A DNA stretch of 64,000 nucleotides, taken from the sequence record MT129652.1; one strand, written 5' to 3'. Shown piece after piece: positions 6,144 to 37,390 of this stretch (position 1 is the first letter of the stretch; each line of letters opens with the position of its first letter). Made by a program: the position numbers and the translations under genes. The notes under the pieces were generated by a model, which was not told the origin of the DNA, searched no databases, and saw only the letters and a program-made list of their open reading frames with translations. The DNA is from Escherichia phage MN01.

Positions 6144-6174
6144 TGTTTACAACGGCAAAGGACTGCCGTATGAT
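6144..6174 (+). promoter_or_regulatory. early sigma70-type promoter upstream of imm
   Basis: GTTTACA -35, about 18 bp, TATGAT -10; hairpin in spacer. Confidence 0.4.
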
Positions 6175-8963: not shown

Positions 8964-10387
8964 AAACTATTTTATCCCAGCTACTCTTTAACAAGGAATA
9001 TTTTGTTAAAGTCTGGCCATATCTGAATAACACATATTTTGAAAAGGGTCCAGCGAAGACCCTTTTCAATACGATTAACGAACACGTAAAAGAATATCAA
9101 GCGGTACCAACTAAGACTGCACTTGATATCGCGCTCGACAGCTCTGACCTTTCTGAAGTCGAATATGAAGGCACAAAGAAACTCTTAGGAGTCCTGGCCG
9201 ATACTCCAGAAGACCAGGAATGGTTGGTTAAAGAAACCGAGAAGTATGTACAGAAGTCTGCGATGTTCAATGCCACATCCAGGATTATCGAAATTCAGAG
9301 CAATGCCGAACTTCCGAAAGATAAACGTGATAAACGAATCCCGGATATTGGTGCTATCCCTGATATCATGCGGGATGCATTATCTATCTGTTTTGACTCT
9401 GCCCTGGGCCATGACTGGTTAAACGATTACGAAGCTCGATTCCAGACTTATCTGAACAAATCGAAAAAGGTTCCGTTTCGCATTAACATCCTGAATAAAA
9501 TCACGAAGGGTGGAGTTGAGTATGGTACAGAGAACGTTTTACTGGCCGGGACAAACGTCGGGAAATCTCTAGGACTTTGTTCATTAGCCGCTGACTATCT
9601 TCAGACTGGTCATAATGTGCTTTATATAAGCATGGAAATGGCTGAAGAAGTATGTGCCAAACGTATTGATGCCAACTTGCTGGATGTGTCTCTGGATGAT
9701 ATTGATGAAGGTCATATATCATGGGCGGAATATAAAGCTAAGATGGAAAAATGGCGTGCTTCCGGGACTCTTGGGACTCTGAAGATAAAACAATATCCAA
9801 CTGGTGGTGCTCATGCGGATACCTTCCGCGCATTGCTGAATGAATACAAACTGAAGCAGGGGTTTGTACCGGATGTGATTATTGTTGACTACCTGGCAAT
9901 CTGCGCAAGCTCAAGACTGAAAACGTTTACCGAAAATAGTTACGGTCTGATTAAGATGGTTGCAGAAGAACTTCGTGGTCTGGCAGTCGAGAAAAATGTG
10001 GTTCTATGGACCGCGGCGCAGACAACCAGGGGCGCGAACGTTGCAGCTGAGATTGATATGGCTGATATCGCAGAATCCTTTGGTATTGCTCACACGGCTG
10101 ACTTTATGTTGGGTGTTGTTGAGACCGAAGAATTCGCTCAAATGGGGCTGCAGTTAATCAAACAGCTTAAGTCTCGTTATGGCGATAAGAACTACTATAA
10201 TAAATTCAAGATGGGCGTTAAGAAAGGCAATCAGCGCTGGTATGAGGTTGATGATGATTCGGCTCCTAAACAAGGCCCTACGGTTAAAGAAGCCACCGGT
10301 GAGATGAATCGCCAGGCTGAAATGAATAGACAAACCAGGGTCAACAGGAGCGACCTGGACGACCTCGCTGCTCAAATGAAATTTTAA
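8957..10387 (+). CDS. 41: replicative DNA helicase gp41 (DnaB-like)
   Basis: Matches recalled T4 gp41 from MVExILS; Walker A GTNVGKS; GTG start chosen at 8957, track start 8948. Confidence 0.92.
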   Translation: MVETILSQLLFNKEYFVKVWPYLNNTYFEKGPAKTLFNTINEHVKEYQAVPTKTALDIALDSSDLSEVEYEGTKKLLGVLADTPEDQEWLVKETEKYVQKSAMFNATSRIIEIQSNAELPKDKRDKRIPDIGAIPDIMRDALSICFDSALGHDWLNDYEARFQTYLNKSKKVPFRINILNKITKGGVEYGTENVLLAGTNVGKSLGLCSLAADYLQTGHNVLYISMEMAEEVCAKRIDANLLDVSLDDIDEGHISWAEYKAKMEKWRASGTLGTLKIKQYPTGGAHADTFRALLNEYKLKQGFVPDVIIVDYLAICASSRLKTFTENSYGLIKMVAEELRGLAVEKNVVLWTAAQTTRGANVAAEIDMADIAESFGIAHTADFMLGVVETEEFAQMGLQLIKQLKSRYGDKNYYNKFKMGVKKGNQRWYEVDDDSAPKQGPTVKEATGEMNRQAEMNRQTRVNRSDLDDLAAQMKF

Positions 10388-10817: not shown

Positions 10818-10830
10818 CTTATGTTATAAT
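10802..10830 (+). promoter_or_regulatory. early promoter cassette
   Basis: CTTACA -35 inside terminator loop, 17 bp, TATAAT; leader CTATCAACTACTGGAG. Confidence 0.55.
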
Positions 10831-10856
10831 GACTCTATCAACTACTGGAGAATAAA

Positions 10857-17398: not shown

Positions 17399-17649
17399 AC
17401 TGGTTAACAAATATTCCCACATCGGCGCTGGATATCGACCGTAAACATGCTCATAAGGAAATCGAGCAACAAAAAATTAATCGGTTACAAAGGCTTAAGA
17501 CTGAATCCGAGACAATTAAAGCCGAACGACCGACAGAATCGAAAAGTTCTTACTCATCATATCAATCTCCTAACTCATCATATCAATCTCCTATTGGCAT
17601 GGCCGTAGACATTGCAGTCTTTGGCGTTCCACTTGGAGTGTTTAAGTAG
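17395..17649 (+). CDS. hypothetical protein with SSYQSP repeat
   Basis: 84 aa from internal ATG; tandem 21-bp repeat encodes SSYQSPN-SSYQSP. Confidence 0.45.
   Translation: MNWLTNIPTSALDIDRKHAHKEIEQQKINRLQRLKTESETIKAERPTESKSSYSSYQSPNSSYQSPIGMAVDIAVFGVPLGVFK
17552..17592. repeat. tandem 21-bp direct repeat (coding, SSYQSP)
   Basis: ACTCATCATATCAATCTCCT twice, separated by one base. Confidence 0.7.
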
Positions 17650-17705
17650 TTTACTTACTCCCCTCCTAATGACATAATGGTCTTTCTTACAACAGAGAGA
17701 CCATT

Positions 17706-18266
17706 ATGAACATCATCAAATCTGATACCGAACCCAACCAGTTAAAATTTAGTGAAATGGAGATAGCTTCATTATTTGAATGCCGCACATCAAAGGTTGA
17801 TAAGACCTTGCATTCAAATGTCAACTCAATCATCAAGTCAAGGTTGTCTATACCCGATACAGTCTTGTGGCGCGGAGTAACCCAGCAAGAGATTGATTTG
17901 TTAGATGAAGCAAAAGAATCAATGCAACCTTTTGAATTTGGACGGGTAACCTCCTTTACAGAAGACTATGGTATTGCCAGGGATTTTGCTGCAATGGAAT
18001 ATGTGACTAGGACTATCGTCAGATTGAATCAGACCAAAGCTTTTTGTTACCATGATGCGATGCGCAAAATCGCGCTTGACGTTCCACTGGAATTCTTCAA
18101 TACAGCTTCTGGTTCCGCCCGGGCAGCTACATTAAGGCGCGAAGAATACATGGACATGATTGATTCTGAGCTTGAATGGTTTGTTCCAGTTGACCAGAAA
18201 TTCGTGGTAGTTGACGCTGGATTTGTTGGTGATTATTATGTTCTTGACTGTGTACAAGAGCAATAA
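17706..18266 (+). CDS. ADP-ribosyltransferase (ModA/ModB family)
   Basis: 186 aa; R (LWRG), S-T-S-like (TSFTED) and ExE (SELEW) ART motifs; mod position next to dda. Confidence 0.7.
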   Translation: MNIIKSDTEPNQLKFSEMEIASLFECRTSKVDKTLHSNVNSIIKSRLSIPDTVLWRGVTQQEIDLLDEAKESMQPFEFGRVTSFTEDYGIARDFAAMEYVTRTIVRLNQTKAFCYHDAMRKIALDVPLEFFNTASGSARAATLRREEYMDMIDSELEWFVPVDQKFVVVDAGFVGDYYVLDCVQEQ

Positions 18267-23458: not shown

Positions 23459-23466
23459 ATTTAAAG

Positions 23467-23500
23467 TGTACAAACTCTTGGGGTCGGAGTATAATGACCC
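23467..23500 (+). promoter_or_regulatory. early promoter cassette with inverted repeat bracketing -10
   Basis: TGTACA, 17 bp, TATAAT; TGGGGTC...GACCCCA flanks the -10. Confidence 0.55.
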
Positions 23501-23537
23501 CACTGGAGAATAAACTTATTAACCAAGAGAGAAAATT

Positions 23538-28237: not shown

Positions 28238-30472
28238 ATGATTTTAGAAACTGAAAAGGAAACAATCCTTGGTAATGGTGCCAAGGCATCAGCATTCACA
28301 ATCCAGGCATCTCCAAAGGTGTTTAAGATTCTGACCAGCGACCTTTACACAAATAAGGTGCGTGCAGTTGTTCGTGAGCTGATTACCAATATGATTGATG
28401 CTCATATGCTCAATGGCTGTCAGGATAAATTCATTGTCCAAGCTCCTGGTGAACTGGACCCACGTTTTGTGTGTCGTGACTTTGGTCCGGGTATGAGTGA
28501 TTTCCAGATTCGTGGTGATGAAAATACTCCAGGTCTGTATAACAGTTTCTTTGCATCATCCAAGGCTGAATCCAATGATTTTATTGGTGGCTTTGGTCTG
28601 GGTTCTAAATCTCCGTTCAGTTATACAGAGACGTTTAGCCTGATTTCGTATCATGATGGCCAAGTTAATGGTTATGTCGCTTATATGGATGGCGATGGTC
28701 CACAGATTAAGCCGACCTTTAGCGAACCAATGAAACCCGGTGACCGTACGGGGATTGAAGTTGTTGTCCCGGTTGATAGTAATGATTTTGGTAAGTTCCG
28801 CCACGAGATTTCATATATCATGCGCCCATTTGCTGGACTGGCTGAAGTACAAGGCGTAGGCGAAATTAATTACTTCCCGGAATTTGATGATTATTATGCT
28901 CCAGAGCGTATTGATTATAGCAGCCCAGAACGTTATGGTCTTTATGCAATTTACGGTGGAATTGTTTATCCAATTGCCGACGGTTATACAAAGAAAACCT
29001 GGATGACCGCCAAAAATGATGTTGTCTTTATTAAGTTCCCGATGGGTTCGTTGGATATTGCACCTTCTCGCGAAGCATTATCACTGGATAAACGTACGGT
29101 CGCAAATATCGTTGAACGTATTGAATCCCTTGATAAGAAAGTCATGGAAGATGATTGTAAGAAATGGCAGGAATCAGAATGTATCCGCCACACGTATCGC
29201 GAATTACAGAGTCTGAGTTATGAAGCTCGTAATTTTCTGAAAGCTCGTAATGCTGAAACGAAATTTACGAAATCGCAATTGACCTTTAACCAGATGTATG
29301 AAATGTTCGAGCTGGACAAAGACCTTATTAATGCCGGGGTTGTCTATGATATCTATAGCACTACCCGTCTGAAACGTCTGCGTAACTCAAGCTCGAACAC
29401 GAATACTGCAAGCCTGACGAGCATGTTTGGTATTCAGAATAATACCTTGAACATTGTTATTGACGATGCTAAAGGGCGAATTGCGATGATTCGGGGCATC
29501 AGTTCAATGCTGTATGACACCAGCGCGAAAGCCAAAAAGCTCAAAGCATCTGGTAAAGTCCCGACTGTACAAGGTAGTAGTCTATTGTTCGTTGACCCAA
29601 CCAGCGAAATTCAAACACGTCTGATGGTTCAACTTCAAGAACGATTTAAAGGCGATACAGTTAATATCTATCGTACGTCTGAACTGACCGCCCTTGTAAA
29701 AGACTGGATTCCGGTTGCTGACCCGAAAGCGCGCGTTAAGTCAAAGACTCCATCATTGATTCGTTGGACTAAAACTAATGGCAAATGGCAGTCTGTTGAA
29801 GAATTTACATGTGCAGCTGATGCAGAGGAAATCGATGGTTATGCTGTATTCATTAACCGCAGTAGCATTTCCCCGTTGAATCAAGAATATGGCACCACGA
29901 CCTTCGGGACCCAGACATTGTGTAAACTGGCAAACCTGTTGGAAATCAATGAATTCTGTGTTATTCGTCCACAGCTTCAGAAAAAGGTTACCAAGCTGGC
30001 GCAGTGTGATTGTTTGATTGAAGCTGCAGTCAATCGTTATGTGGAATTGATTGATTCAGTTGATGCGGACCAGTACATTGCCGCTTCAAGCCGTTCGCGT
30101 TATTATATTCCTATCCTGTCTGAATATGCGGAACTGAATTTTATGTTCAAGTATTTTTATGCAAAAGATGTTCAGAAAGATGTGAATACTGACTATGCCG
30201 AACTAATGCAGTTCAATAAGTTCTTTGCTTATAACGCATATAACAGTGGAACGGTTGATAAGACCATGCAGGAAACTCTGGTCCTTTGTAATAAGATTTA
30301 TGACGACCTGACCAAAAACGCTTCGGTAACAAGTGATAAAATGGTTTTTGAATTTGAAAAGAATCACCCGATTGTTTCACACTTTTTATATAACCGTAAC
30401 GCCATGTCAACTGAACAAGTACAGAACGTTGCTCAAATCATGAAGGCCGTGGAAGCGGCCAATAAGGAATAA
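28238..30472 (+). CDS. rIIA: rIIA protein (GHKL-ATPase-like, membrane-associated)
   Basis: 744 aa; N-terminus matches recalled T4 rIIA (TEKETILGNG, VRELITNMIDAH). Confidence 0.9.
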   Translation: MILETEKETILGNGAKASAFTIQASPKVFKILTSDLYTNKVRAVVRELITNMIDAHMLNGCQDKFIVQAPGELDPRFVCRDFGPGMSDFQIRGDENTPGLYNSFFASSKAESNDFIGGFGLGSKSPFSYTETFSLISYHDGQVNGYVAYMDGDGPQIKPTFSEPMKPGDRTGIEVVVPVDSNDFGKFRHEISYIMRPFAGLAEVQGVGEINYFPEFDDYYAPERIDYSSPERYGLYAIYGGIVYPIADGYTKKTWMTAKNDVVFIKFPMGSLDIAPSREALSLDKRTVANIVERIESLDKKVMEDDCKKWQESECIRHTYRELQSLSYEARNFLKARNAETKFTKSQLTFNQMYEMFELDKDLINAGVVYDIYSTTRLKRLRNSSSNTNTASLTSMFGIQNNTLNIVIDDAKGRIAMIRGISSMLYDTSAKAKKLKASGKVPTVQGSSLLFVDPTSEIQTRLMVQLQERFKGDTVNIYRTSELTALVKDWIPVADPKARVKSKTPSLIRWTKTNGKWQSVEEFTCAADAEEIDGYAVFINRSSISPLNQEYGTTTFGTQTLCKLANLLEINEFCVIRPQLQKKVTKLAQCDCLIEAAVNRYVELIDSVDADQYIAASSRSRYYIPILSEYAELNFMFKYFYAKDVQKDVNTDYAELMQFNKFFAYNAYNSGTVDKTMQETLVLCNKIYDDLTKNASVTSDKMVFEFEKNHPIVSHFLYNRNAMSTEQVQNVAQIMKAVEAANKE

Positions 30473-30473
30473 T

Positions 30474-31451
30474 ATGTTTAATATCAAATGTATGTCTAAA
30501 GCCGAACAAGCTGATGTGGTCCAGATGTATTCAACGGGCAATTATACCCAGCCTGAATTGGCAGAATATTTTGCTGTGTCCGTTGACACCATTCGCCGCG
30601 TTTTGAAAAATGATAAAGAATCAAAATTAGCTAGAACCATTTCCGCATCACTGAAAGCAGCTGTTGGTGTGGCGATTAATGCTCCGGTGACAGTAACGGT
30701 TGAAGTCCCGGTTGCTGATACAATCGGCGGTAGCCGCCCGGAAATCGTATGGAACGCATCAAGCAAATTCGTTTCCATCACCGAAGGCCGCACGGTCTGG
30801 AACGCAACAAAAGACCATAAACACTTTGATGATATTATTCAGGCATTGATTGAATTCCGGTATGAAGATGCTATCGAGTTTATCTCTATCAAAGCTGCAG
30901 TGCAAAAATATGTGAAAGGTGATGTGCGTATTGAAGGTGGTAGCCTGTTCTATCAGGGAATTGAACTGCGCTCTGGTTTGGTTACTCGTATCATCGATTC
31001 AATGCAAAATGGCGAAGACTTTGAATTCTATCTGCCATTCCTTGAAAATCTCCTTGAGAACCCGAGTGAGAAAGCTGTACAGCGTTTGTTTGACTTCTTG
31101 GTTGCTAACGATATCGAAATCACCGAAGATGGCCATTTCATCGCCTGGAAAATGGTTCGTTCAACCTACAAAGATTGCCACTCAAATACATTCGACAACA
31201 GCCCTGGTCAATATGTTAAAATGCCGCGCTCTCGTGTGAATGACAATGACGAACAGACCTGTTCAACTGGGCTGCACGTTTGTTCTAAAGGTTATATCGG
31301 AAGTGGCTTTGGTCATGGTGATGGGCGCATCGTATCCTGTAAAGTTCACCCGCGCGATGTTGTAAGCATCCCGGTGGATTATTCCGATAGTAAGATGAGG
31401 GTTTGCGGTTACCTGGTTCTTGAAGATGTGACCGAACGTTTCAATGATTAA
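30474..31451 (+). CDS. rIIB: rIIB protein
   Basis: 325 aa; long blocks match recalled T4 rIIB (GDVRIEGGSLFYQ, FEFYxPFLENLLENPS, VHPRDVVSIP). Confidence 0.88.
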   Translation: MFNIKCMSKAEQADVVQMYSTGNYTQPELAEYFAVSVDTIRRVLKNDKESKLARTISASLKAAVGVAINAPVTVTVEVPVADTIGGSRPEIVWNASSKFVSITEGRTVWNATKDHKHFDDIIQALIEFRYEDAIEFISIKAAVQKYVKGDVRIEGGSLFYQGIELRSGLVTRIIDSMQNGEDFEFYLPFLENLLENPSEKAVQRLFDFLVANDIEITEDGHFIAWKMVRSTYKDCHSNTFDNSPGQYVKMPRSRVNDNDEQTCSTGLHVCSKGYIGSGFGHGDGRIVSCKVHPRDVVSIPVDYSDSKMRVCGYLVLEDVTERFND

Positions 31452-31935
31452 ACAAACAATTGCTAAAGATGGCTCGGCTCGTGGTATTGTCCACGGGCTA
31501 GGTCACACGCCTGAATACATTGTATGGATTGGCATGAAAGCTCGGTGTTGCAATCCAACACATATTAGTTATTCTCGATATGGCGGTCGGGGTATCACTG
31601 TTTGCGATGAATGGCTGCATGATTTTGAAAGATTTTATACAGATATGGGGCCACGACCCACTGACAAACATCAACTTGACCGAACAGATAACGATAAAGG
31701 GTACTCTCCCGATAACTGCAGATGGGTTAGTCCAGGCGAGAATGCTTTAAATAAGCGCCCGTATAATAACAACAAGTCTGGATTTAAAGGAGTCTCGTTT
31801 GATAAACGAGCTTTGAATAAACCATGGCGAGCCACTATTATGCGAAATAAAAAACAAATTCAAGTCGGAGCTTTTGCAACTCCAGAAGAAGCAAATGAAG
31901 CTCGATTAAAATATATGGAAGAACACAATGTCTAA
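31444..31935 (+). CDS. HNH-like/AP2-domain endonuclease (free-standing homing-endonuclease-like gene)
   Basis: 163 aa; YGGRGI.VC..W, LDRxDNDKGYxPDNCRW (HNH_3-like), C-terminal AP2-like SGFKGVSF..WRA; overlaps rIIB stop. Confidence 0.6.
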   Translation: MIKQTIAKDGSARGIVHGLGHTPEYIVWIGMKARCCNPTHISYSRYGGRGITVCDEWLHDFERFYTDMGPRPTDKHQLDRTDNDKGYSPDNCRWVSPGENALNKRPYNNNKSGFKGVSFDKRALNKPWRATIMRNKKQIQVGAFATPEEANEARLKYMEEHNV

Positions 31936-32137
31936 AGAAATGTTAGGTTTCCAAGCACGTGTAGTTGAAGAATATGACCAGCTGGTTTTGAAAATCAATG
32001 CTCTTGAAGAGTTTATCAAGGGTGGAGTTTTTGAAACTCTTGATATCCGTCAACAAGGTCTTTTGATTGCCCAACTGGATGCGATGGGCGCATATGCTCA
32101 TGTACTGGCAATCCGTATCTCTTATTTTGGTGAATAA
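31928..32137 (+). CDS. hypothetical protein
   Basis: 69 aa, helical. Confidence 0.45.
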   Translation: MSKEMLGFQARVVEEYDQLVLKINALEEFIKGGVFETLDIRQQGLLIAQLDAMGAYAHVLAIRISYFGE

Positions 32138-32140
32138 ATT

Positions 32141-32410
32141 ATGATTAAGCATTTCAATGTGTCAGACCGTGACATCAAAGTTTCAAATCTCCGGGGTCAC
32201 CATTATGCAGGAATAGTTTACTGTGGTAAGCTCATCAAGCATGAAGGTGATGTTCACTATGGCTGGTTGGAATGTGATGAAGTAGTTGTTGGGGAATTCC
32301 CTGACCCGGATTCTGATACATTTGATGCTAATGACCGTTTGTACTATGGCGAGCTTCATATCCGGGGAATCGTCGGTATCGATGAGGTAAAAGATGATTC
32401 AGAAGAGTAA
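32141..32410 (+). CDS. hypothetical protein
   Basis: 89 aa, acidic C-terminus. Confidence 0.45.
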   Translation: MIKHFNVSDRDIKVSNLRGHHYAGIVYCGKLIKHEGDVHYGWLECDEVVVGEFPDPDSDTFDANDRLYYGELHIRGIVGIDEVKDDSEE

Positions 32411-32987
32411 AACATGGGAGCATCTGAAAAAGATGCCCTCCTTTCTTTATACAAAAGAAGACTTAACCCCTGAATCTCTACAAAAGATTGTAGACACAGC
32501 CAGGTATTCATTGCGTAAAGACCCAGGTCAAGACCGTGAGCAAGTCATGCAAAGATGTATGGTGGCTACAATGGCCGAACAAGCTATTGCTAAATGGACC
32601 TCCGGCTTTTTATGTGGCGGCGATGAAGATTACGATAATCCTTATTCCTTTGCATTTGATGTAGTTTCGAAGGAAGGAGTAAGAATCGAAGTCAAGACCC
32701 ATCAGTCTGGTTCCAAATGGATATCCGTGCATACTGGCCACCAGGGTGATTATCCACATGGTTACGGGATTAATCTTGGTCCTTTTATGCAGCACAAGCT
32801 TGCCGACCTTATGATTATGCTCGATGTAAAAGAGACTCTCAAAGGTTATAGATTTAAACCAAAATTCCTTGCTGGACCTGGTGCTTTCGTTCCTGAGTCT
32901 GGTCTTGTGCAGAAGTCACAAGGGGATGGCTGGTACCTCCGTTCTTGTTCAGAAGAAAAATTTCCCTATCACCGGTTTACAAGCTGA
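32394..32987 (+). CDS. hypothetical protein with PD-(D/E)xK-like motif (possible nuclease)
   Basis: 197 aa; AFDVV...RIEVKT resembles D...(D/E)xK core; near where T4 has denB; unverified. Confidence 0.5.
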   Translation: MIQKSKTWEHLKKMPSFLYTKEDLTPESLQKIVDTARYSLRKDPGQDREQVMQRCMVATMAEQAIAKWTSGFLCGGDEDYDNPYSFAFDVVSKEGVRIEVKTHQSGSKWISVHTGHQGDYPHGYGINLGPFMQHKLADLMIMLDVKETLKGYRFKPKFLAGPGAFVPESGLVQKSQGDGWYLRSCSEEKFPYHRFTS

Positions 32988-33004
32988 ACCAACCATGTAA
33001 TAAT
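32976..33004 (+). promoter_or_regulatory. early promoter (GTTTACA type)
   Basis: GTTTACA, 17 bp, AATAAT with TG two bases upstream. Confidence 0.45.
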
Positions 33005-33032
33005 GTCCTCACACCAACAAATGAGGACATTA
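33001..33032 (+). promoter_or_regulatory. perfect 11-bp stem hairpin sequestering the SD of ORF 33035
   Basis: TAATGTCCTCA-(10 nt loop)-TGAGGACATTA; GAGGA SD lies in the 3-prime arm, ATG 3 nt downstream. Confidence 0.6.
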
Positions 33033-33034
33033 TC

Positions 33035-33310
33035 ATGGAACAAGTTACTACTCAAAACATCAAACAAATTCTTATTCAAGCACTCAAAAACAACAACATC
33101 AATTTTCCAACCCATGAAATTTTTGATGTGGTATTCAACGAAGTCCAGGGTCAAGTTGCATATTATGACGTTATCATTTATCTTTCAGAATTTGAAGTCT
33201 ACCACCTGACTGAAATCGCTTTCTATCTCTATCGTGGGACTGCAGATTTTACCGGGGTCGTGAATGCAGTTGGTGCATATAAAGAAGTTAAAGAACAAAT
33301 GCACAATTAA
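33035..33310 (+). CDS. hypothetical protein
   Basis: 91 aa from ATG just after a perfect 11-bp hairpin covering the SD. Confidence 0.5.
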   Translation: MEQVTTQNIKQILIQALKNNNINFPTHEIFDVVFNEVQGQVAYYDVIIYLSEFEVYHLTEIAFYLYRGTADFTGVVNAVGAYKEVKEQMHN

Positions 33311-33321
33311 TTAAAAAGTAG

Positions 33322-33350
33322 TGTACATCAGTATGGAGTCTATGTATAAT
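33322..33350 (+). promoter_or_regulatory. early promoter cassette
   Basis: AAAAGTAGTGTACA, 17 bp, TATAAT; leader CCATACTGAGTTACCAAA. Confidence 0.55.
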
Positions 33351-33386
33351 GATTCCATACTGAGTTACCAAATACTGGAGAATAAA

Positions 33387-33542
33387 ATGAAACCTGCTCA
33401 ATATGCAATGACTTTATACCTTGAAGTTAATGGCGATATTACTGAATTTTTTAAATTAATGCAACAGCGCGGAAAAAGTTTTGCAGTTACTGAGCGTCAA
33501 TTTTACGCGTGTCGCAAAAATACATACAATCGTTATGCATGA
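33387..33542 (+). CDS. small hypothetical protein (51 aa)
   Basis: SD GGAG; promoter cassette upstream; track ORF 33321 trimmed. Confidence 0.4.
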   Translation: MKPAQYAMTLYLEVNGDITEFFKLMQQRGKSFAVTERQFYACRKNTYNRYA

Positions 33543-33552
33543 GGAAAATAAA

Positions 33553-33813
33553 ATGGATATCAAATTATATTACGCTAAACACAAAGTTACAGGTAAAGTT
33601 GTTGCTGCTATGTACGATGCATCAGGTGAAGATGTTACTACGGAATTATCCCTTTCTAATTGTAGATTTCTTCGTCCTTTGCTAGCGTCAAAAAAAGATT
33701 TACAAAAACTTATCGACGGTAAATTAGATAATGTCGATGGTATAGATATTCATTATGAACTCCGCCATGCACTGACTGATGGGTTTATGGAAATAAAAGA
33801 GATAGTATTATGA
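33553..33813 (+). CDS. hypothetical protein
   Basis: 86 aa from SD-preceded ATG. Confidence 0.5.
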   Translation: MDIKLYYAKHKVTGKVVAAMYDASGEDVTTELSLSNCRFLRPLLASKKDLQKLIDGKLDNVDGIDIHYELRHALTDGFMEIKEIVL

Positions 33814-33904
33814 GTAGCAAAACTTGGTGCCTTATCTGGATATTGTGTATCCCAGTAATTTGCGTTTGTTTTAGTTTATTATTAATGAAACTTGCATAAA
33901 AGAG

Positions 33905-33955
33905 TATACATCTCCAGTGGTTGTAGTATAATGAACCTATCAACTACTGGAGATG
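33905..33955 (+). promoter_or_regulatory. early promoter cassette with 10-bp inverted repeat
   Basis: TATACA, about 16 bp, TATAAT; CATCTCCAGT...ACTGGAGATG brackets -10 and leader. Confidence 0.4.
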
Positions 33956-33958
33956 ATT

Positions 33959-34075
33959 ATGAAAAAGTTACTTAAAGCCATTTGGAACATGTTTGTACTG
34001 TTTGTTGTCCTGAGCATTTTCCCAATTGTTTTTATGATTGACCATGTACGTGTTTACTTTAACTATTTCTTTTGA
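33959..34075 (+). CDS. small membrane peptide (38 aa)
   Basis: SD GGAG; hydrophobic; promoter cassette upstream; not in ORF track. Confidence 0.3.
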   Translation: MKKLLKAIWNMFVLFVVLSIFPIVFMIDHVRVYFNYFF

Positions 34076-34085
34076 GGATAATATT

Positions 34086-34232
34086 ATGATAGTTATGAAA
34101 AAGTTTAAAGAATATCATTGCTATGAATGTGGCAAAAAGATTGATTCTATTCATTCATTAAGCGTCTTTTCTTTTGATAATTTAAACTATGCACACATTT
34201 GGTGCCTTCGTGGAATGACTAAATTTAACTGA
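34086..34232 (+). CDS. small Cys/His protein (48 aa)
   Basis: CYECGKK ... HIWC pattern suggests a small zinc finger; SD GAGGA. Confidence 0.35.
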   Translation: MIVMKKFKEYHCYECGKKIDSIHSLSVFSFDNLNYAHIWCLRGMTKFN

Positions 34233-34242
34233 GGATAATATT

Positions 34243-34449
34243 ATGAATTACAATTCACAATTTCAGAAATCCAATCGTCGCTTTGACTTTATGTTCAAGT
34301 TTATCATGGCGATGATTATCCTGATTTTCATTGGTGCCATTGCAATGATTGGTTTCCAGCTCTGGATTGCTGCTGAAGTGTTCACACAAATCCAGGATAA
34401 TGGTTTGAAGTCTGTTGTTGATGTAATTTGGAATGGAGCTAAGCAATGA
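34243..34449 (+). CDS. small membrane protein
   Basis: 68 aa with long hydrophobic helix; SD GAGGA. Confidence 0.45.
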   Translation: MNYNSQFQKSNRRFDFMFKFIMAMIILIFIGAIAMIGFQLWIAAEVFTQIQDNGLKSVVDVIWNGAKQ

Positions 34450-34691
34450 AACTTTTTAAAGACATTGCAGTTGGTGAAAAATTTGTCCTGGGTAATGGTC
34501 AACAACTGATTCGCATTTCGCCTTTGATGGATAACAGCGAGCGCCCTGTGCGCACTGAAAACTGTTTGGATTATCCTTTTTATCAGAAGCGTTTTGCAAT
34601 TGAAAATAATACTGAGTGCTTCACAGTTGATGAACTGATGGAATCATCAGAAGAAGTTGACTTGTGGGATGGCGCAGTTGATGTAGAATAG
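34446..34691 (+). CDS. hypothetical protein
   Basis: 81 aa; ATGA coupling. Confidence 0.45.
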   Translation: MKLFKDIAVGEKFVLGNGQQLIRISPLMDNSERPVRTENCLDYPFYQKRFAIENNTECFTVDELMESSEEVDLWDGAVDVE

Positions 34692-34720
34692 TGTACAAAC
34701 TTTTGGGAGCAGAGTATAAT
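34692..34720 (+). promoter_or_regulatory. early promoter cassette
   Basis: TAGTGTACA, 17 bp, TATAAT; TGGGA...TCCCA inverted repeat. Confidence 0.55.
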
Positions 34721-34759
34721 GTTCCCAGTGGATAATAAAATTTAGCTGAGGAAATCATT

Positions 34760-35104
34760 ATGTCTAAAGTATTTTTTGGTAATCGCAACATTATGTTCTT
34801 TAAACAGATTAGCGTATCAGAAGCATTTGATTTAAGTTATTCAGGCGGTACAAAAGCTGTTAACCTTAAAAATTTGATGTCTGCAGAATTTGCATTCTAT
34901 CAGGACCCTGAAACTGGTTTCTACAAATTTATTAAGTTCCGCATGACTATGGACCGCGATTATCGTGATGTTTATTATACAAGTTATGAAAGTGTTATCA
35001 ATGCAATTCGTGAAGCTTATGGATTGGATTCGTTGTCGCTTGACCGCCTGTATAATGCAAGCCTTTACACCAGTGGATTTATTTTAGAACAGCTTCAAAA
35101 ATAG
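34760..35104 (+). CDS. hypothetical protein
   Basis: 114 aa; promoter cassette upstream. Confidence 0.5.
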   Translation: MSKVFFGNRNIMFFKQISVSEAFDLSYSGGTKAVNLKNLMSAEFAFYQDPETGFYKFIKFRMTMDRDYRDVYYTSYESVINAIREAYGLDSLSLDRLYNASLYTSGFILEQLQK

Positions 35105-35138
35105 TGTACAAACTCTTGGGGTCTGAGTATAATGACCC
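35105..35138 (+). promoter_or_regulatory. early promoter cassette
   Basis: TAGTGTACA, 17 bp, TATAAT; TGGGGTC...GACCCCA nearly identical to the 23467 cassette. Confidence 0.55.
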
Positions 35139-35177
35139 CACTGGAGCACAAAACTTTAACTTACTGAGGAAATTAAT

Positions 35178-35627
35178 ATGAATACTTACATGACCCGTCG
35201 TGACGTACTGAATGCTGGCGCTACTACTGTTGCTTATATCCATAATGGTAATTATGTTGCAGGTCGCCCGACTAAAGAAGCTATCACTCAACCAGGTTTT
35301 TATTTCGTGGTTAAAGGTGAAGGTGAATCACGTATTGTTGCCGCACGTTTTTATGTTGGTAACCAACGTTCACAACAAGGGTTTGACACTGTATTAAGTC
35401 ACATCCGCAAACAGCGTTCGCAACTGTCTCGCACAATGGCGAACAATGGGGTTATCTATGAAGTCCTGTTTGTCCCAGTTTCTAAAATGAAACCTCTGAC
35501 AACTGGTTATGGTAAAGGTCAAATTGCGATGGCGTTCACTCGCTCACATAGTTCTGATTGCCAGACCCTTTCAGAAATGAATCGCATGCTTGCTGATAAC
35601 TTTAAATTCATTCTGCAGAGTTATTAA
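35178..35627 (+). CDS. ndd: nucleoid disruption protein Ndd-like
   Basis: 149 aa (T4 Ndd 151); [29 protein letters not shown] resemble recalled T4 Ndd; between rIIB and 52. Confidence 0.55.
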
Positions 35628-35716
35628 TATGAGTAATTTCCATAATGAACACGTGATGCAATGGCATCGTCATAATCTGAAATTAACTGGCGTCTTTGGA
35701 CGCCCTTGAGGAAAAT

Positions 35717-35869
35717 ATGAAATTTGTTCATGGCGTAGCTTTTTTCTGTTGGTCATTTTTATTTGTTGGAACATTAATAACTGGAGAAACTTCAGTATTT
35801 CTGCAGTCAACAGCTCAAGGTGTATTAGCGACTTTAACACTATTTAAATTATTGGATAAAAATGATTAA
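35717..35869 (+). CDS. small membrane protein (50 aa), possible Ac-like
   Basis: Hydrophobic; T4 has the 51-aa membrane protein ac beside gene 52; not in ORF track. Confidence 0.35.
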   Translation: MKFVHGVAFFCWSFLFVGTLITGETSVFLQSTAQGVLATLTLFKLLDKND

Positions 35870-36002
35870 GAAAATCCTGGGCTACTCGTTAGCCCTTGCT
35901 GCCTTATTGGTGGCACTGTATTATGGAGTTGTGTTTGCATTAGTGCAGGTTGTGCTTTTTATTTCTGATGCTATAATGGCAGTACATTCGTTAATCTGGT
36001 AA
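35862..36002 (+). CDS. small membrane protein (46 aa)
   Basis: Hydrophobic; overlaps previous ORF end; just upstream of gene 52. Confidence 0.3.
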   Translation: MIKKILGYSLALAALLVALYYGVVFALVQVVLFISDAIMAVHSLIW

Positions 36003-36010
36003 GGTGATAT

Positions 36011-37390
36011 ATGTCTGACGTTTTAAGTATGATGTCCAAACAGTTCAGTGATTCTATGGGGACCCTTAACCCACGCAGTTTAAAAGACATTATTGATGTG
36101 GAAGCATTGTCATATGCTATCTACACTGTGGAAGGTCGTGCCATCCCAAACATGATTGATGGTTTTAAACCAGTTCACAGATTTGTTATGGCGAGAGCAT
36201 TAGACCTGGCTCGCGGTGATAAGAATAAATTCCATAAGGTTGCATCCATCGCAGGGGGCGTAGCTGATTATGGTTATCACCATGGCGAAGCATCAGCGGA
36301 AGAAGCAACTTCTGGTCTGGTCGCAACATATAAAAATGAATATCCTATGTTTGATGGGCAAGGTAACTTTGGTTCCAGAATGGTTCCAGAAGCATCATCA
36401 GCTCGTTATGTATTCGCAAGGGTTTCAAAGAACTTTTACAACCTGTTTAAGGATACAGAATATGCTCCGGTCCATCCTGATGAAGAACATAAGCCTCCTG
36501 CTTTTTATCTTCCTGTTATTCCTACTGTATTACTTAACGCCACTTCTGGGATTGCTGTTGGCTTTGCTACTGATATCCTTCCTCATTCGTTCCAGGACGT
36601 CAAGGAAGCTGTTAAAGCTATCGTGGAAGGTCGTGAGCCGGTTGCTCCGAAAGTAAAATATCCAGAATTCCGTGGTAAAGTTGTTGAGCTGGAAGAGCCC
36701 GGTAAGTATGAACTTCATGGCACGTACAAAATGACCTCCAGGACTCAAATGGAAATTACTGAAATCCCAGTTCAATGGAACCTGGAAAAGTATACAAGTA
36801 AAATCCTGGACCCGCTGGAAGAGAAAGGTTTTATCACCTGGAAAGATAACTGCGGCGAGCATGGTTTTGGGTTTAAGATTAAATTCCGCAAAGAATACAA
36901 GTTGGATGGCACTGAAGAAGAGAATCATGAGAAAATCATGAAAGACTTTGGTCTGATTGAGAAGCTCTCCCAGAACTTAACTGTGCTTAACCACAAAGGC
37001 AAATTGGCTGAATATACCAACACGCTTGACCTGATTCGCGATTTCGTTGATGTCCGTAAGACTTATGTTCAAGTGCGAATTGACAGTAAGATTAAAGAAA
37101 CTGAAGCGGCATTTAAACTGGCCCGGGCAAAAGTCTTCTTTATTAAAGAAGTGATTGATGGTAAGGTTGTTATCCAGGGGAAACCTCGTAAGAAGTTGAT
37201 TGAGGAGCTCCAGGCGAGTGAAATATATGGCGATTATGCAGAGAAGTTAGTGGCGATGAACATCTACCATATGACCTCTGATGAAGCTAAGAAGCTTGCG
37301 GATGAAGCTAAGGCTAAGAAAGCTGAGCATGAGTACTGGAAGACAACTGACGTTAAAACTGAATACCTTAATGATTTGGAGGCTCTATGA
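36011..37390 (+). CDS. 52: DNA topoisomerase II medium subunit gp52 (GyrA-like)
   Basis: 459 aa (T4 gp52 about 440); GyrA-like N-terminus IPNMIDGFKPVHR; synteny. Confidence 0.9.
   Translation: MSDVLSMMSKQFSDSMGTLNPRSLKDIIDVEALSYAIYTVEGRAIPNMIDGFKPVHRFVMARALDLARGDKNKFHKVASIAGGVADYGYHHGEASAEEATSGLVATYKNEYPMFDGQGNFGSRMVPEASSARYVFARVSKNFYNLFKDTEYAPVHPDEEHKPPAFYLPVIPTVLLNATSGIAVGFATDILPHSFQDVKEAVKAIVEGREPVAPKVKYPEFRGKVVELEEPGKYELHGTYKMTSRTQMEITEIPVQWNLEKYTSKILDPLEEKGFITWKDNCGEHGFGFKIKFRKEYKLDGTEEENHEKIMKDFGLIEKLSQNLTVLNHKGKLAEYTNTLDLIRDFVDVRKTYVQVRIDSKIKETEAAFKLARAKVFFIKEVIDGKVVIQGKPRKKLIEELQASEIYGDYAEKLVAMNIYHMTSDEAKKLADEAKAKKAEHEYWKTTDVKTEYLNDLEAL

Follow-up and report, generated by a model that had tools for sequence, protein, structure and literature searches.

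A stable hairpin over the translation start of a Gaprivervirus orphan gene and its nested candidate early promoter: a putative translational mask

Genomic context and downstream gene

The sequence analysed is a 64,000-nt stretch of Escherichia phage MN01 (sequence record MT129652.1), hereafter called the window. The phage is a T-even member of Gaprivervirus, and the sequence is 92-97% identical to RZ, VR7, SP18 and others. On the + strand the genes are arranged in the order rIIA, rIIB, an HNH endonuclease gene, two small ORFs, denB, ORF 33035, the small ORFs of the ndd region, ndd and topoisomerase gene 52, and the stretch from denB to ndd is a hyperplastic region. The element described here lies between the following two genes:

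32394..32987, + strand: denB (endonuclease IV), phrog_1360 with E=3e-80, named denB in relatives; stop codon TGA at 32985-87
33035..33310, + strand: ORF 33035, the putatively regulated gene, coding for a 91-aa orphan protein (phrog_17571) and annotated as a CDS in relatives

From rIIB through the HNH gene and the two small ORFs to denB, the genes share a strand and follow one another directly or with overlaps, and no terminator-like site was found in the terminator scan between these upstream genes and the hairpin (before 32987), so that read-through RNA across the hairpin is expected. The denB stop codon is located 6 nt before the outer helix of the hairpin, in a frame that differs from that of ORF 33035.

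ORF 33035 is confined to Gaprivervirus phages. It was present in 34/34 close relatives, only the distant MX01 and T4 being without the gene; it is absent after denB in both T4 and Dhakavirus MX01, relative to which it is a genus-specific insertion. In phage fDHCT2, a 16-nt deletion frameshifts this ORF. Homologue searches yielded one cluster (word-indexed search), 34 records, all from Gaprivervirus (tblastn), three loci (IMG/VR scan) and three weak hits (HMMER over 1.8 billion representatives), and a metagenome pattern scan retrieved one contig, in which the hairpin was identical. The protein gave no significant match to Pfam (sub-threshold only) and no sequence matches to NCBIfam or PDB; its single-sequence AlphaFold model had a pLDDT of 66, and Foldseek returned nothing at E below 0.5. 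The label "MafI family immunity protein" that record PQ341120 gives to ORF 33035 was not reproducible.

Sequence and stability of the hairpin

The sequence from 32975 to 33038 is GTTTACAAGCTGAACCAACCATGTAATAATGTCCTCACACCAACAAATGAGGACATTATCATGG. It contains a perfect stem of 12 bp, formed by the 5' arm ATAATGTCCTCA (33000-33011) and the 3' arm TGAGGACATTAT (33022-33033) and closed by a loop of 10 nt. In RNA, the helix is extended beyond a 2-nt bulge (32998-99) by five further pairs, 32993-97 with 33034-38, and both the Shine-Dalgarno sequence GAGGA (33023-27) and the AUG (33035-37) of ORF 33035 are paired within it. The parts of the hairpin are as follows:

32993..32997, + strand: outer 5' arm CCAUG, pairing with CAUGG at 33034-38; CA changes to UG in relatives, with G·U pairing retained
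33000..33011, + strand: inner 5' arm AUAAUGUCCUCA, half of the perfect 12-bp stem
33012..33021, + strand: loop of 10 nt, CACCAACAAA, with 33012 and 33013 variable among relatives
33022..33033, + strand: inner 3' arm UGAGGACAUUAU, including the Shine-Dalgarno GAGGA (33023-27)
33034..33038, + strand: outer 3' arm CAUGG, including the start codon AUG (33035-37)

A preliminary description of this DNA had reported a perfect stem of 11 bp whose 3' arm contained the GAGGA Shine-Dalgarno and ended 3 nt before the ATG. The perfect inverted repeat is present and GAGGA does lie inside the 3' arm, but the stem measures 12 bp, the 5-pair extension hides the AUG as well, and an arm of 11 bp stops at 33032, with two bases left before the ATG. 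The hairpin itself is confirmed and had been slightly understated.

The 12-bp stem alone had a minimum free energy of -14.1 kcal/mol, which the extension lowered to -19.9 kcal/mol (z = -6.0 and -6.1, respectively), 0 of 200 shuffled sequences folded as stably, and the hairpin was retained in the minimum free energy fold of its 121-nt context. The 64-kb window contains two perfect stems of 12 bp or longer with a loop of 3-20 nt, against 0.1 expected from dinucleotide shuffles, and five of 10 bp or longer, against 1.6. The covariance models of Rfam 15 gave 0 matches at E <= 1 across 30000-37000.

Candidate promoter

The promoter scan identified TTTACA at 32976-81 (GTTTAC at 32975-80), a 17-nt spacer and AATAAT at 32999-33004, with TG before the -10 box and a score of 10/12. 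The elements of this candidate promoter are:

32975..32981, + strand: -35 element GTTTACA, of the T4 early-promoter type, within the last denB codons
32996..33004, + strand: extended -10, consisting of TG (32996-97), one base and AATAAT (32999-33004), with A at -11 and T at -7
33011, + strand: predicted +1 (A), placed 7 nt past the -10 box (+/-2 nt) by promoter geometry, on the last base of the 5' arm

The conserved features of T4 early promoters are GTTTAC at -36 to -31, A at -11 and T at -7 (PMC1524935). The -35 element corresponds to this early consensus, and neither a late motif (TATAAATA) nor a MotA motif accompanies it: a reading as a late promoter was rejected, as TAATAATG fits TATAAATA at only 5/8 positions, and so was a reading as a middle promoter, as the MotA-box position is occupied by AAGCTGAA, in which the core CTT is replaced by CTG. 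The last five bases of the -10 box are the beginning of the 5' arm, which bears out the earlier claim that a GTTTACA/AATAAT promoter ends within that arm (the box ends at 33004 and the arm starts at 33000). The candidate departs from typical promoters in that its -35 element lies in coding sequence, ATCAC stands at -40 to -44 with no A-rich UP element, and its -10 box begins with A, not T; on these grounds the promoter, recognised by its match to the consensus, may be weak. The number of GTTTAC-N18-NANNNT motifs was by itself not significant (6 matches against 2.8 expected).

Accessibility of the start site on long and short transcripts

The opening cost of a start site was calculated as the free energy required to make positions -14 to +5 single-stranded, with a context of -100 to +40 for read-through RNA. 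For ORF 33035 it was 21.5 kcal/mol on the read-through RNA versus 3.4 kcal/mol on transcripts starting at 33009, 33011 or 33013. This folding of alternative transcripts had been suggested in the preliminary description, which supposed that promoter-proximal transcripts may lack the full hairpin; the predicted +1 at about 33011, on the last base of the 5' arm by motif position, agrees with that supposition. With a ribosome on the denB stop codon, covering up to 32997-33002, the opening cost was still 15-18 kcal/mol. The fold of the short RNA was no more stable than that of shuffled sequence (z = -0.7). By the rule of de Smit and van Duin, translation would be expected to differ about tenfold for each 1.4 kcal/mol past a threshold.

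Among 110 crude gene starts in the window (median 5.3, sd 3.7), that of ORF 33035 ranked first in opening cost. As a positive control, the same metric was applied to T4, taking the 86 genes annotated in its first 50 kb (median 5.3), where the experimentally known masked genes 49 (16.8) and I-TevII (13.2) were in the top six and soc (9.5) was eighth. T4 motB.2, with an early promoter, and gene 55, with a middle promoter, were likewise high.

Substitutions among relatives

An alignment of 20 sequences was examined, comprising 18 phage genomes, one metagenomic contig and the window, with all relatives at least 93% identical. All 17 pairs were intact in 20/20 sequences. Four pairs were variable, by C>U at 32994 and 33010 and by A>G at 32995 and 33027, every change being one-sided and leaving a G·U pair; the loop varied at two of its 10 positions (33012 and 33013). 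Changes to G·U preserve the helix solely in the + strand RNA; the opposite strand, or a DNA cruciform, would acquire A·C. The probability that all four of four changes would be pair-preserving transitions (C>U and A>G only) by chance was estimated by ourselves at roughly 0.01-0.06.

No two-sided compensatory change was present in the ORF 33035 hairpin among the 20 sequences. A shuffle control of pair counts was uninformative because the variation is one-sided and the sequences are near-identical, and arm conservation is a confounded measure, since the arms also serve as the -10 box and the Shine-Dalgarno sequence. The substitution pattern thus lends modest support to pairing at the RNA level. 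Since ORF 33035 is without an orthologue outside the genus, cross-genus support can come only from sibling elements, and the covariation observed across genera backs the class to which these may belong, not the ORF 33035 hairpin itself.

Similar elements at mod and ndd.4

The ATG starts preceded by a Shine-Dalgarno sequence in the window were scanned for stems covering the start site. In three strong cases the start belongs to a real gene and is intergenic; all three are on the + strand, and a sigma-70-like promoter is nested in each. Besides the hairpin at ORF 33035, they are:

17673-17708, + strand: candidate mod mask, a 15-bp stem of CAUAAUGGUCUUUCU and AGAGAGACCAUUAUG, -19.7 kcal/mol, with TTTACT-N17-CATAAT, whose -10 box opens the 5' arm
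33909-33955, + strand: candidate mask of the ndd.4-like gene, -24.4 kcal/mol, with TATACA-N16-TATAAT, whose -10 box lies in the loop

Of the two Mod-type ADP-ribosyltransferase genes (phrog_832), the first, in the modB position, is the one with the candidate mask at 17673-17708. From the predicted transcript starts, the opening costs at the mod and ndd.4 starts fall from 19.7 and 16.5, respectively, to 1.5-3.5 kcal/mol.

Masks of 13.5-19.7 kcal/mol, with unrelated stem sequences, were found in the mod leaders of 7/8 T-even genera. The leaders of T4, RB69, JD18, Cronus, F48 and E33 have a GTTTAC-type promoter whose -10 region is the 5' arm covering the Shine-Dalgarno sequence and the AUG (13.5-18.7), and that of STML-198 is the only one of the 8 genera without a mask. 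T4 (15.5) and MX01 (13.1) also have the ndd.4 mask, and in MX01 a G-C pair is replaced by U-A in a compensatory change. Both in the three masks of the window and at the orthologous mod and ndd.4 genes in other genera, the 3' arm is always situated over the Shine-Dalgarno sequence and/or the AUG.

These data leave room for a conserved and so far undescribed class of T-even elements, start-masking hairpins with a nested early promoter, although its existence is regarded as somewhat doubtful. Such a class would include the first mod gene in at least seven genera, ndd.4, T4 motB.2 and orphans like ORF 33035.

Comparison with masking hairpins and PeSL cassettes

Hairpins that sequester the Shine-Dalgarno sequence or the AUG have been described in T4 e, soc, 49 and I-TevI/II/III and in Aeh1 mobE, where a promoter inside or next to the hairpin gives rise to escaping transcripts (PMC3014915, PMC2988022). 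The mechanism is experimentally established for T4 e, soc, 49 and I-TevI (PMC3014915); for the segB hairpin, with a calculated 20.2 kcal, start-site masking has been proposed (PMC2330249). The ORF 33035 element resembles the e/soc/49/I-TevI class in having a stable local helix that, on long read-through RNA, takes in the Shine-Dalgarno sequence and/or the AUG, in the position of a promoter whose own transcripts would miss the 5' arm (here by motif position), in its comparable stability (19.9, against the value for segB) and in the location of the gene downstream of other genes on the same strand. It differs in the promoter, which is of the sigma-70 early type, whereas the published nested promoters are late (TATAAATA) or middle, and in its predicted effect: known masks delay expression, while for ORF 33035 the opposite is predicted, namely expression in the first minutes and from its own promoter only. 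The genes regulated by such hairpins "are all late genes" according to a review (PMC2988022), and an early version is therefore without experimental precedent.

The locus also resembles the PeSL (promoter-early stem-loop) cassettes that fill the hyperplastic regions of T4-type phages (PMC2839356), and denB-ndd is a PeSL-rich hyperplastic region in T4/PST (PMC4122927). A stem-loop of RB49 matched the rrnB T1 terminator in reducing lacZ read-through, and recombination crossovers have been mapped within or beside the stem-loops (PMC2839356). PeSL stem-loops have been read as terminators or attenuators and as recombination sites (Arbiol 2010, Comeau 2014), with no mention of translation in these papers. 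As in these cassettes, an early sigma-70-like promoter and a stem-loop are followed by a Shine-Dalgarno sequence and an ATG, in a hyperplastic region and with an orphan gene downstream; as in one PeSL subclass, the stem-loop (by its 5' arm) overlaps the -10 box. The -35 element and the spacer fit the T4/PST PeSL consensus TTTACW-N17-TAYWAT, and the first base of the -10 box is A for T.

Several features set the element apart from PeSL cassettes. The PeSL stems lie at or upstream of the transcription start, while the 3' arm at ORF 33035 would lie at about +12 to +23 and is the ribosome-binding site. There is no repeated motif of ~100 bp, as blastn-short of 32960-33040 found no other copy in the window; by contrast, the true repeat at 35095-35180 has copies at 23465 (98%) and 34687 (89%). 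An AT-rich tract upstream of the -35 element is also missing, 32945-32974 being denB coding sequence with 63% A+T; of five other cassette flanks measured, three had 74-81% A+T and two 57-59%. Repeats of the PeSL type (TGTACA-N17-TATAAT) occur five times in the window, at 23467, 33322, 34692, 35105 and 39956, against 0.04 expected, and in the cassettes at 33322, 34692 and 35105 the stems only flank the -10 box, with start sites that are open (2.5-5.2 kcal/mol). Within a PeSL-like cassette, the ORF 33035 element represents a variant, with a candidate early promoter, of the known T-even masking device, and combines two known devices.

Alternative explanations

The stem-loop could serve mainly as a PeSL-type attenuator, or as a stabiliser of the 3' end of the denB message, with its overlap of the start site a by-product of a compact intergenic region. 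The abundance of PeSL cassettes in T4-type hyperplastic regions, the PeSL-type repeats in the window itself and the effect of the RB49 stem-loop on lacZ read-through (PMC2839356) speak for this explanation, and an attenuator role would be compatible with masking; it is nevertheless considered unlikely, since it does not explain why the 3' arm is always on the Shine-Dalgarno sequence or the AUG in the masking subset, the neighbouring PeSL stems leave their start sites open, the sequence of the element is not common to the other cassettes of the window, and no U-tract follows the stem (CAUGGAACAAG). A true intrinsic (rho-independent) terminator, with which the element shares a stable stem-loop just past a stop codon, was rejected: the 3' flank CAUGGAACAAG is without a U run, the site is missing from the terminator scan, the base of the stem is AU-rich, and the 3' arm holds the Shine-Dalgarno sequence of the next gene. 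An action of the inverted repeat as DNA, either as an operator for a dimeric protein over the promoter or as a cruciform or recombination hotspot for cassette shuffling, is judged quite improbable. A perfect 12-bp inverted repeat at -11 to +23 of a promoter is in a classic operator position, PeSL crossovers fall in or beside stem-loops (PMC2839356), and ORF 33035 is a genus-specific insertion versus Dhakavirus MX01 and T4. Against this, all four stem substitutions break the DNA palindrome, with A·C on the other strand, and keep G·U in the + strand RNA; the motif occurs only once in the window; and the stems of the sibling orthologues differ between genera, which is unlike the site of one conserved binding protein.

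Still less probable is a processing site, for RNase III or a similar RNase, that would separate the denB and ORF 33035 messages. The 17-bp interrupted helix is intergenic and would lie on a polycistronic early transcript, as such a site might, but it is below the usual length of RNase III substrates, which are typically ~20 bp, it has no Rfam match, and nothing in the data is specific to cleavage. A RegB site was discarded, as no GGAG is present and the Shine-Dalgarno sequence reads GAGGA. A chance palindrome without function might be suspected, given that AT-rich sequences of the -10 and spacer type (ATAAT / ATTAT) are easily self-complementary. With 0.1 such stems expected per window, z about -6, a position exactly on the start site that ranks 1/110, and retention in 20/20 relatives with wobble-only changes, a chance origin is for practical purposes excluded.

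Proposed function

The preferred reading is that the hairpin acts in cis as a translational mask combined with a nested early promoter, which is held to be moderately probable. Promoter-dependent translational masking had been put forward in the preliminary description, and it is supported in silico by the opening energies, the substitutions to G·U only, the recurrence of the arrangement and the analogy with T4. In the mechanism proposed, whose start point, read-through, translation block and timing are predicted steps, polymerase coming from the rIIB-denB operon, by early read-through or in middle-mode transcription, would copy both arms, and the nascent read-through RNA would fold into the 12+5-bp helix; with the Shine-Dalgarno sequence and the AUG of ORF 33035 shut inside it, 30S subunits could not bind. 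Host sigma-70 polymerase starting from GTTTACA-N17-AATAAT at about 33011 would begin past the 5' arm, and the promoter-proximal mRNA would have an open start site and be translated.

Early promoters are switched off 2-5 minutes post infection, and middle RNA is produced partly by extension of early transcripts (PMC2988021, PMC3014915). With the early promoters shut off, only the gene's own immediate-early transcripts would yield the ORF 33035 protein, in an amount determined by the gene's promoter, and the later polycistronic RNA would be silent for this gene. If the mask works in this way, the hairpin-plus-nested-promoter device would serve to cut off early proteins, not only to delay late ones, and the product of ORF 33035, likewise those of mod and ndd.4, would be needed only briefly or be intolerable later. 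It would also be an RNA-level contribution to the sharp drop in early protein synthesis, which is only partly explained by promoter shut-off and RegB (PMC3014915), and would add a translational role to the PeSL stem-loops, so far read only as terminators and recombination sites.

The practical value of the single locus is modest, the principle being already established in T4. More interesting as a lead are the early-promoter masks as a possible wider class, with conservation at the mod genes of several genera. If this class is real, the translation of host-takeover genes would be strictly tied to their own immediate-early promoters and silent on later read-through RNA, the reverse in time of the late switch known from e, soc and 49, and the masks would act as a translational insulator for shuffled gene cassettes.

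Predicted start-site masks in other leaders

Two further genes of the window have hairpins at their start sites:
17706-18266, first Mod-type ADP-ribosyltransferase gene (leader element at 17649-17708)
33905-33955, hairpin element of an ndd.4-like ORF (40 aa, membrane)

The start of the first Mod-type ADP-ribosyltransferase gene is covered by a 15-bp hairpin, which includes both the SD and the AUG, and the promoter motif of this leader is GTTTACT-N17-CATAAT, with the -10 box forming the beginning of the 5' arm. Masks of equivalent layout were predicted for the mod genes of T4 (modB), RB69, JD18, Cronus, F48 and E33, with unrelated stem sequences, whereas the mod leader of STML-198 lacked an equivalent mask.

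In the ndd.4-like ORF, CAUCUCCAGUGGUUG pairs with CAACUACUGGAGAUG (-24.4 kcal/mol); the loop holds the -10 box TATAAT, and the 3' arm the SD and AUG. This mask was kept in T4 and in the Dhakavirus MX01, with a compensatory change from G-C to U-A. A 27-nt leader (TAATGAACCTATCAACTACTGGAGATG-like) was common to two cassettes of the window, at 10825-10851 and 33927-33953 (93% identical), and its core, CTATCAACTA, was also found after early promoters in T4 (ndd.4 and ndd.6) and MX01. It is a conserved motif of early leaders.

Among the 86 annotated genes of T4 1-50000 used as control set, motB.2 (start 8161) and gene 55 (start 40157) were within the top three by opening cost, the free energy for making the start site single-stranded. 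The values were 15.2 kcal/mol and 16.9 kcal/mol, respectively, as high as that of the known masked gene 49. Nested promoter motifs were an early GTTTACT at motB.2 and a MotA-box middle promoter at gene 55.

PeSL-type cassettes

Promoter-early stem-loop (PeSL) elements were located as follows:
23467, 33322, 34692, 35105 and 39956, + strand, PeSL-type repeat cassettes
6145-6174, PeSL-like promoter and stem-loop, directly 3' of the DNA polymerase stop codon

The repeat is (A)GTGTACA-N17-TATAAT, with the -10 box flanked by short stems. Five matches were observed in the window, against an expectation of 0.04. Between 23465-23508 and 35103-35146, two of the copies, identity was 98%. The start sites downstream of these cassettes stay unstructured. 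The element at 6145-6174 is GTTTACA-N-TATGAT, with a small stem in the spacer (CGGCA aaggac TGCCG); judged from its sequence, it is PeSL-like, of the 'between the boxes' subclass.

Homologues of ORF 33035

In phage fDHCT2, the homologue of this orphan gene is frameshifted after codon 16 by a 16-nt deletion (L006, near 710), and no CDS is annotated there in the record; the hairpin is retained and carries a C>U change at the site equivalent to 33010. This frameshift may indicate that the homologue is dispensable or, alternatively, a sequencing error. The homologue in phage EAWsc9 (PQ341120.1) is labelled 'MafI family immunity protein'; Pfam, NCBIfam, a PDB sequence search and a low-confidence fold search gave no relation to MafI.

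Other features

31444-31935, HNH homing-endonuclease-like ORF (163 aa), overlapping the rIIB stop codon
9039-9069, second perfect 12-bp hairpin (UUGAAAAGGGUC, 7-nt loop, GACCCUUUUCAA)

The HNH ORF looks like a mobile insertion, because the close relative RZ has no HNH gene between rIIB and denB. The hairpin at 9039-9069 is intragenic: it lies in coding sequence, about 90 nt downstream of the start of the gene 41-like helicase.
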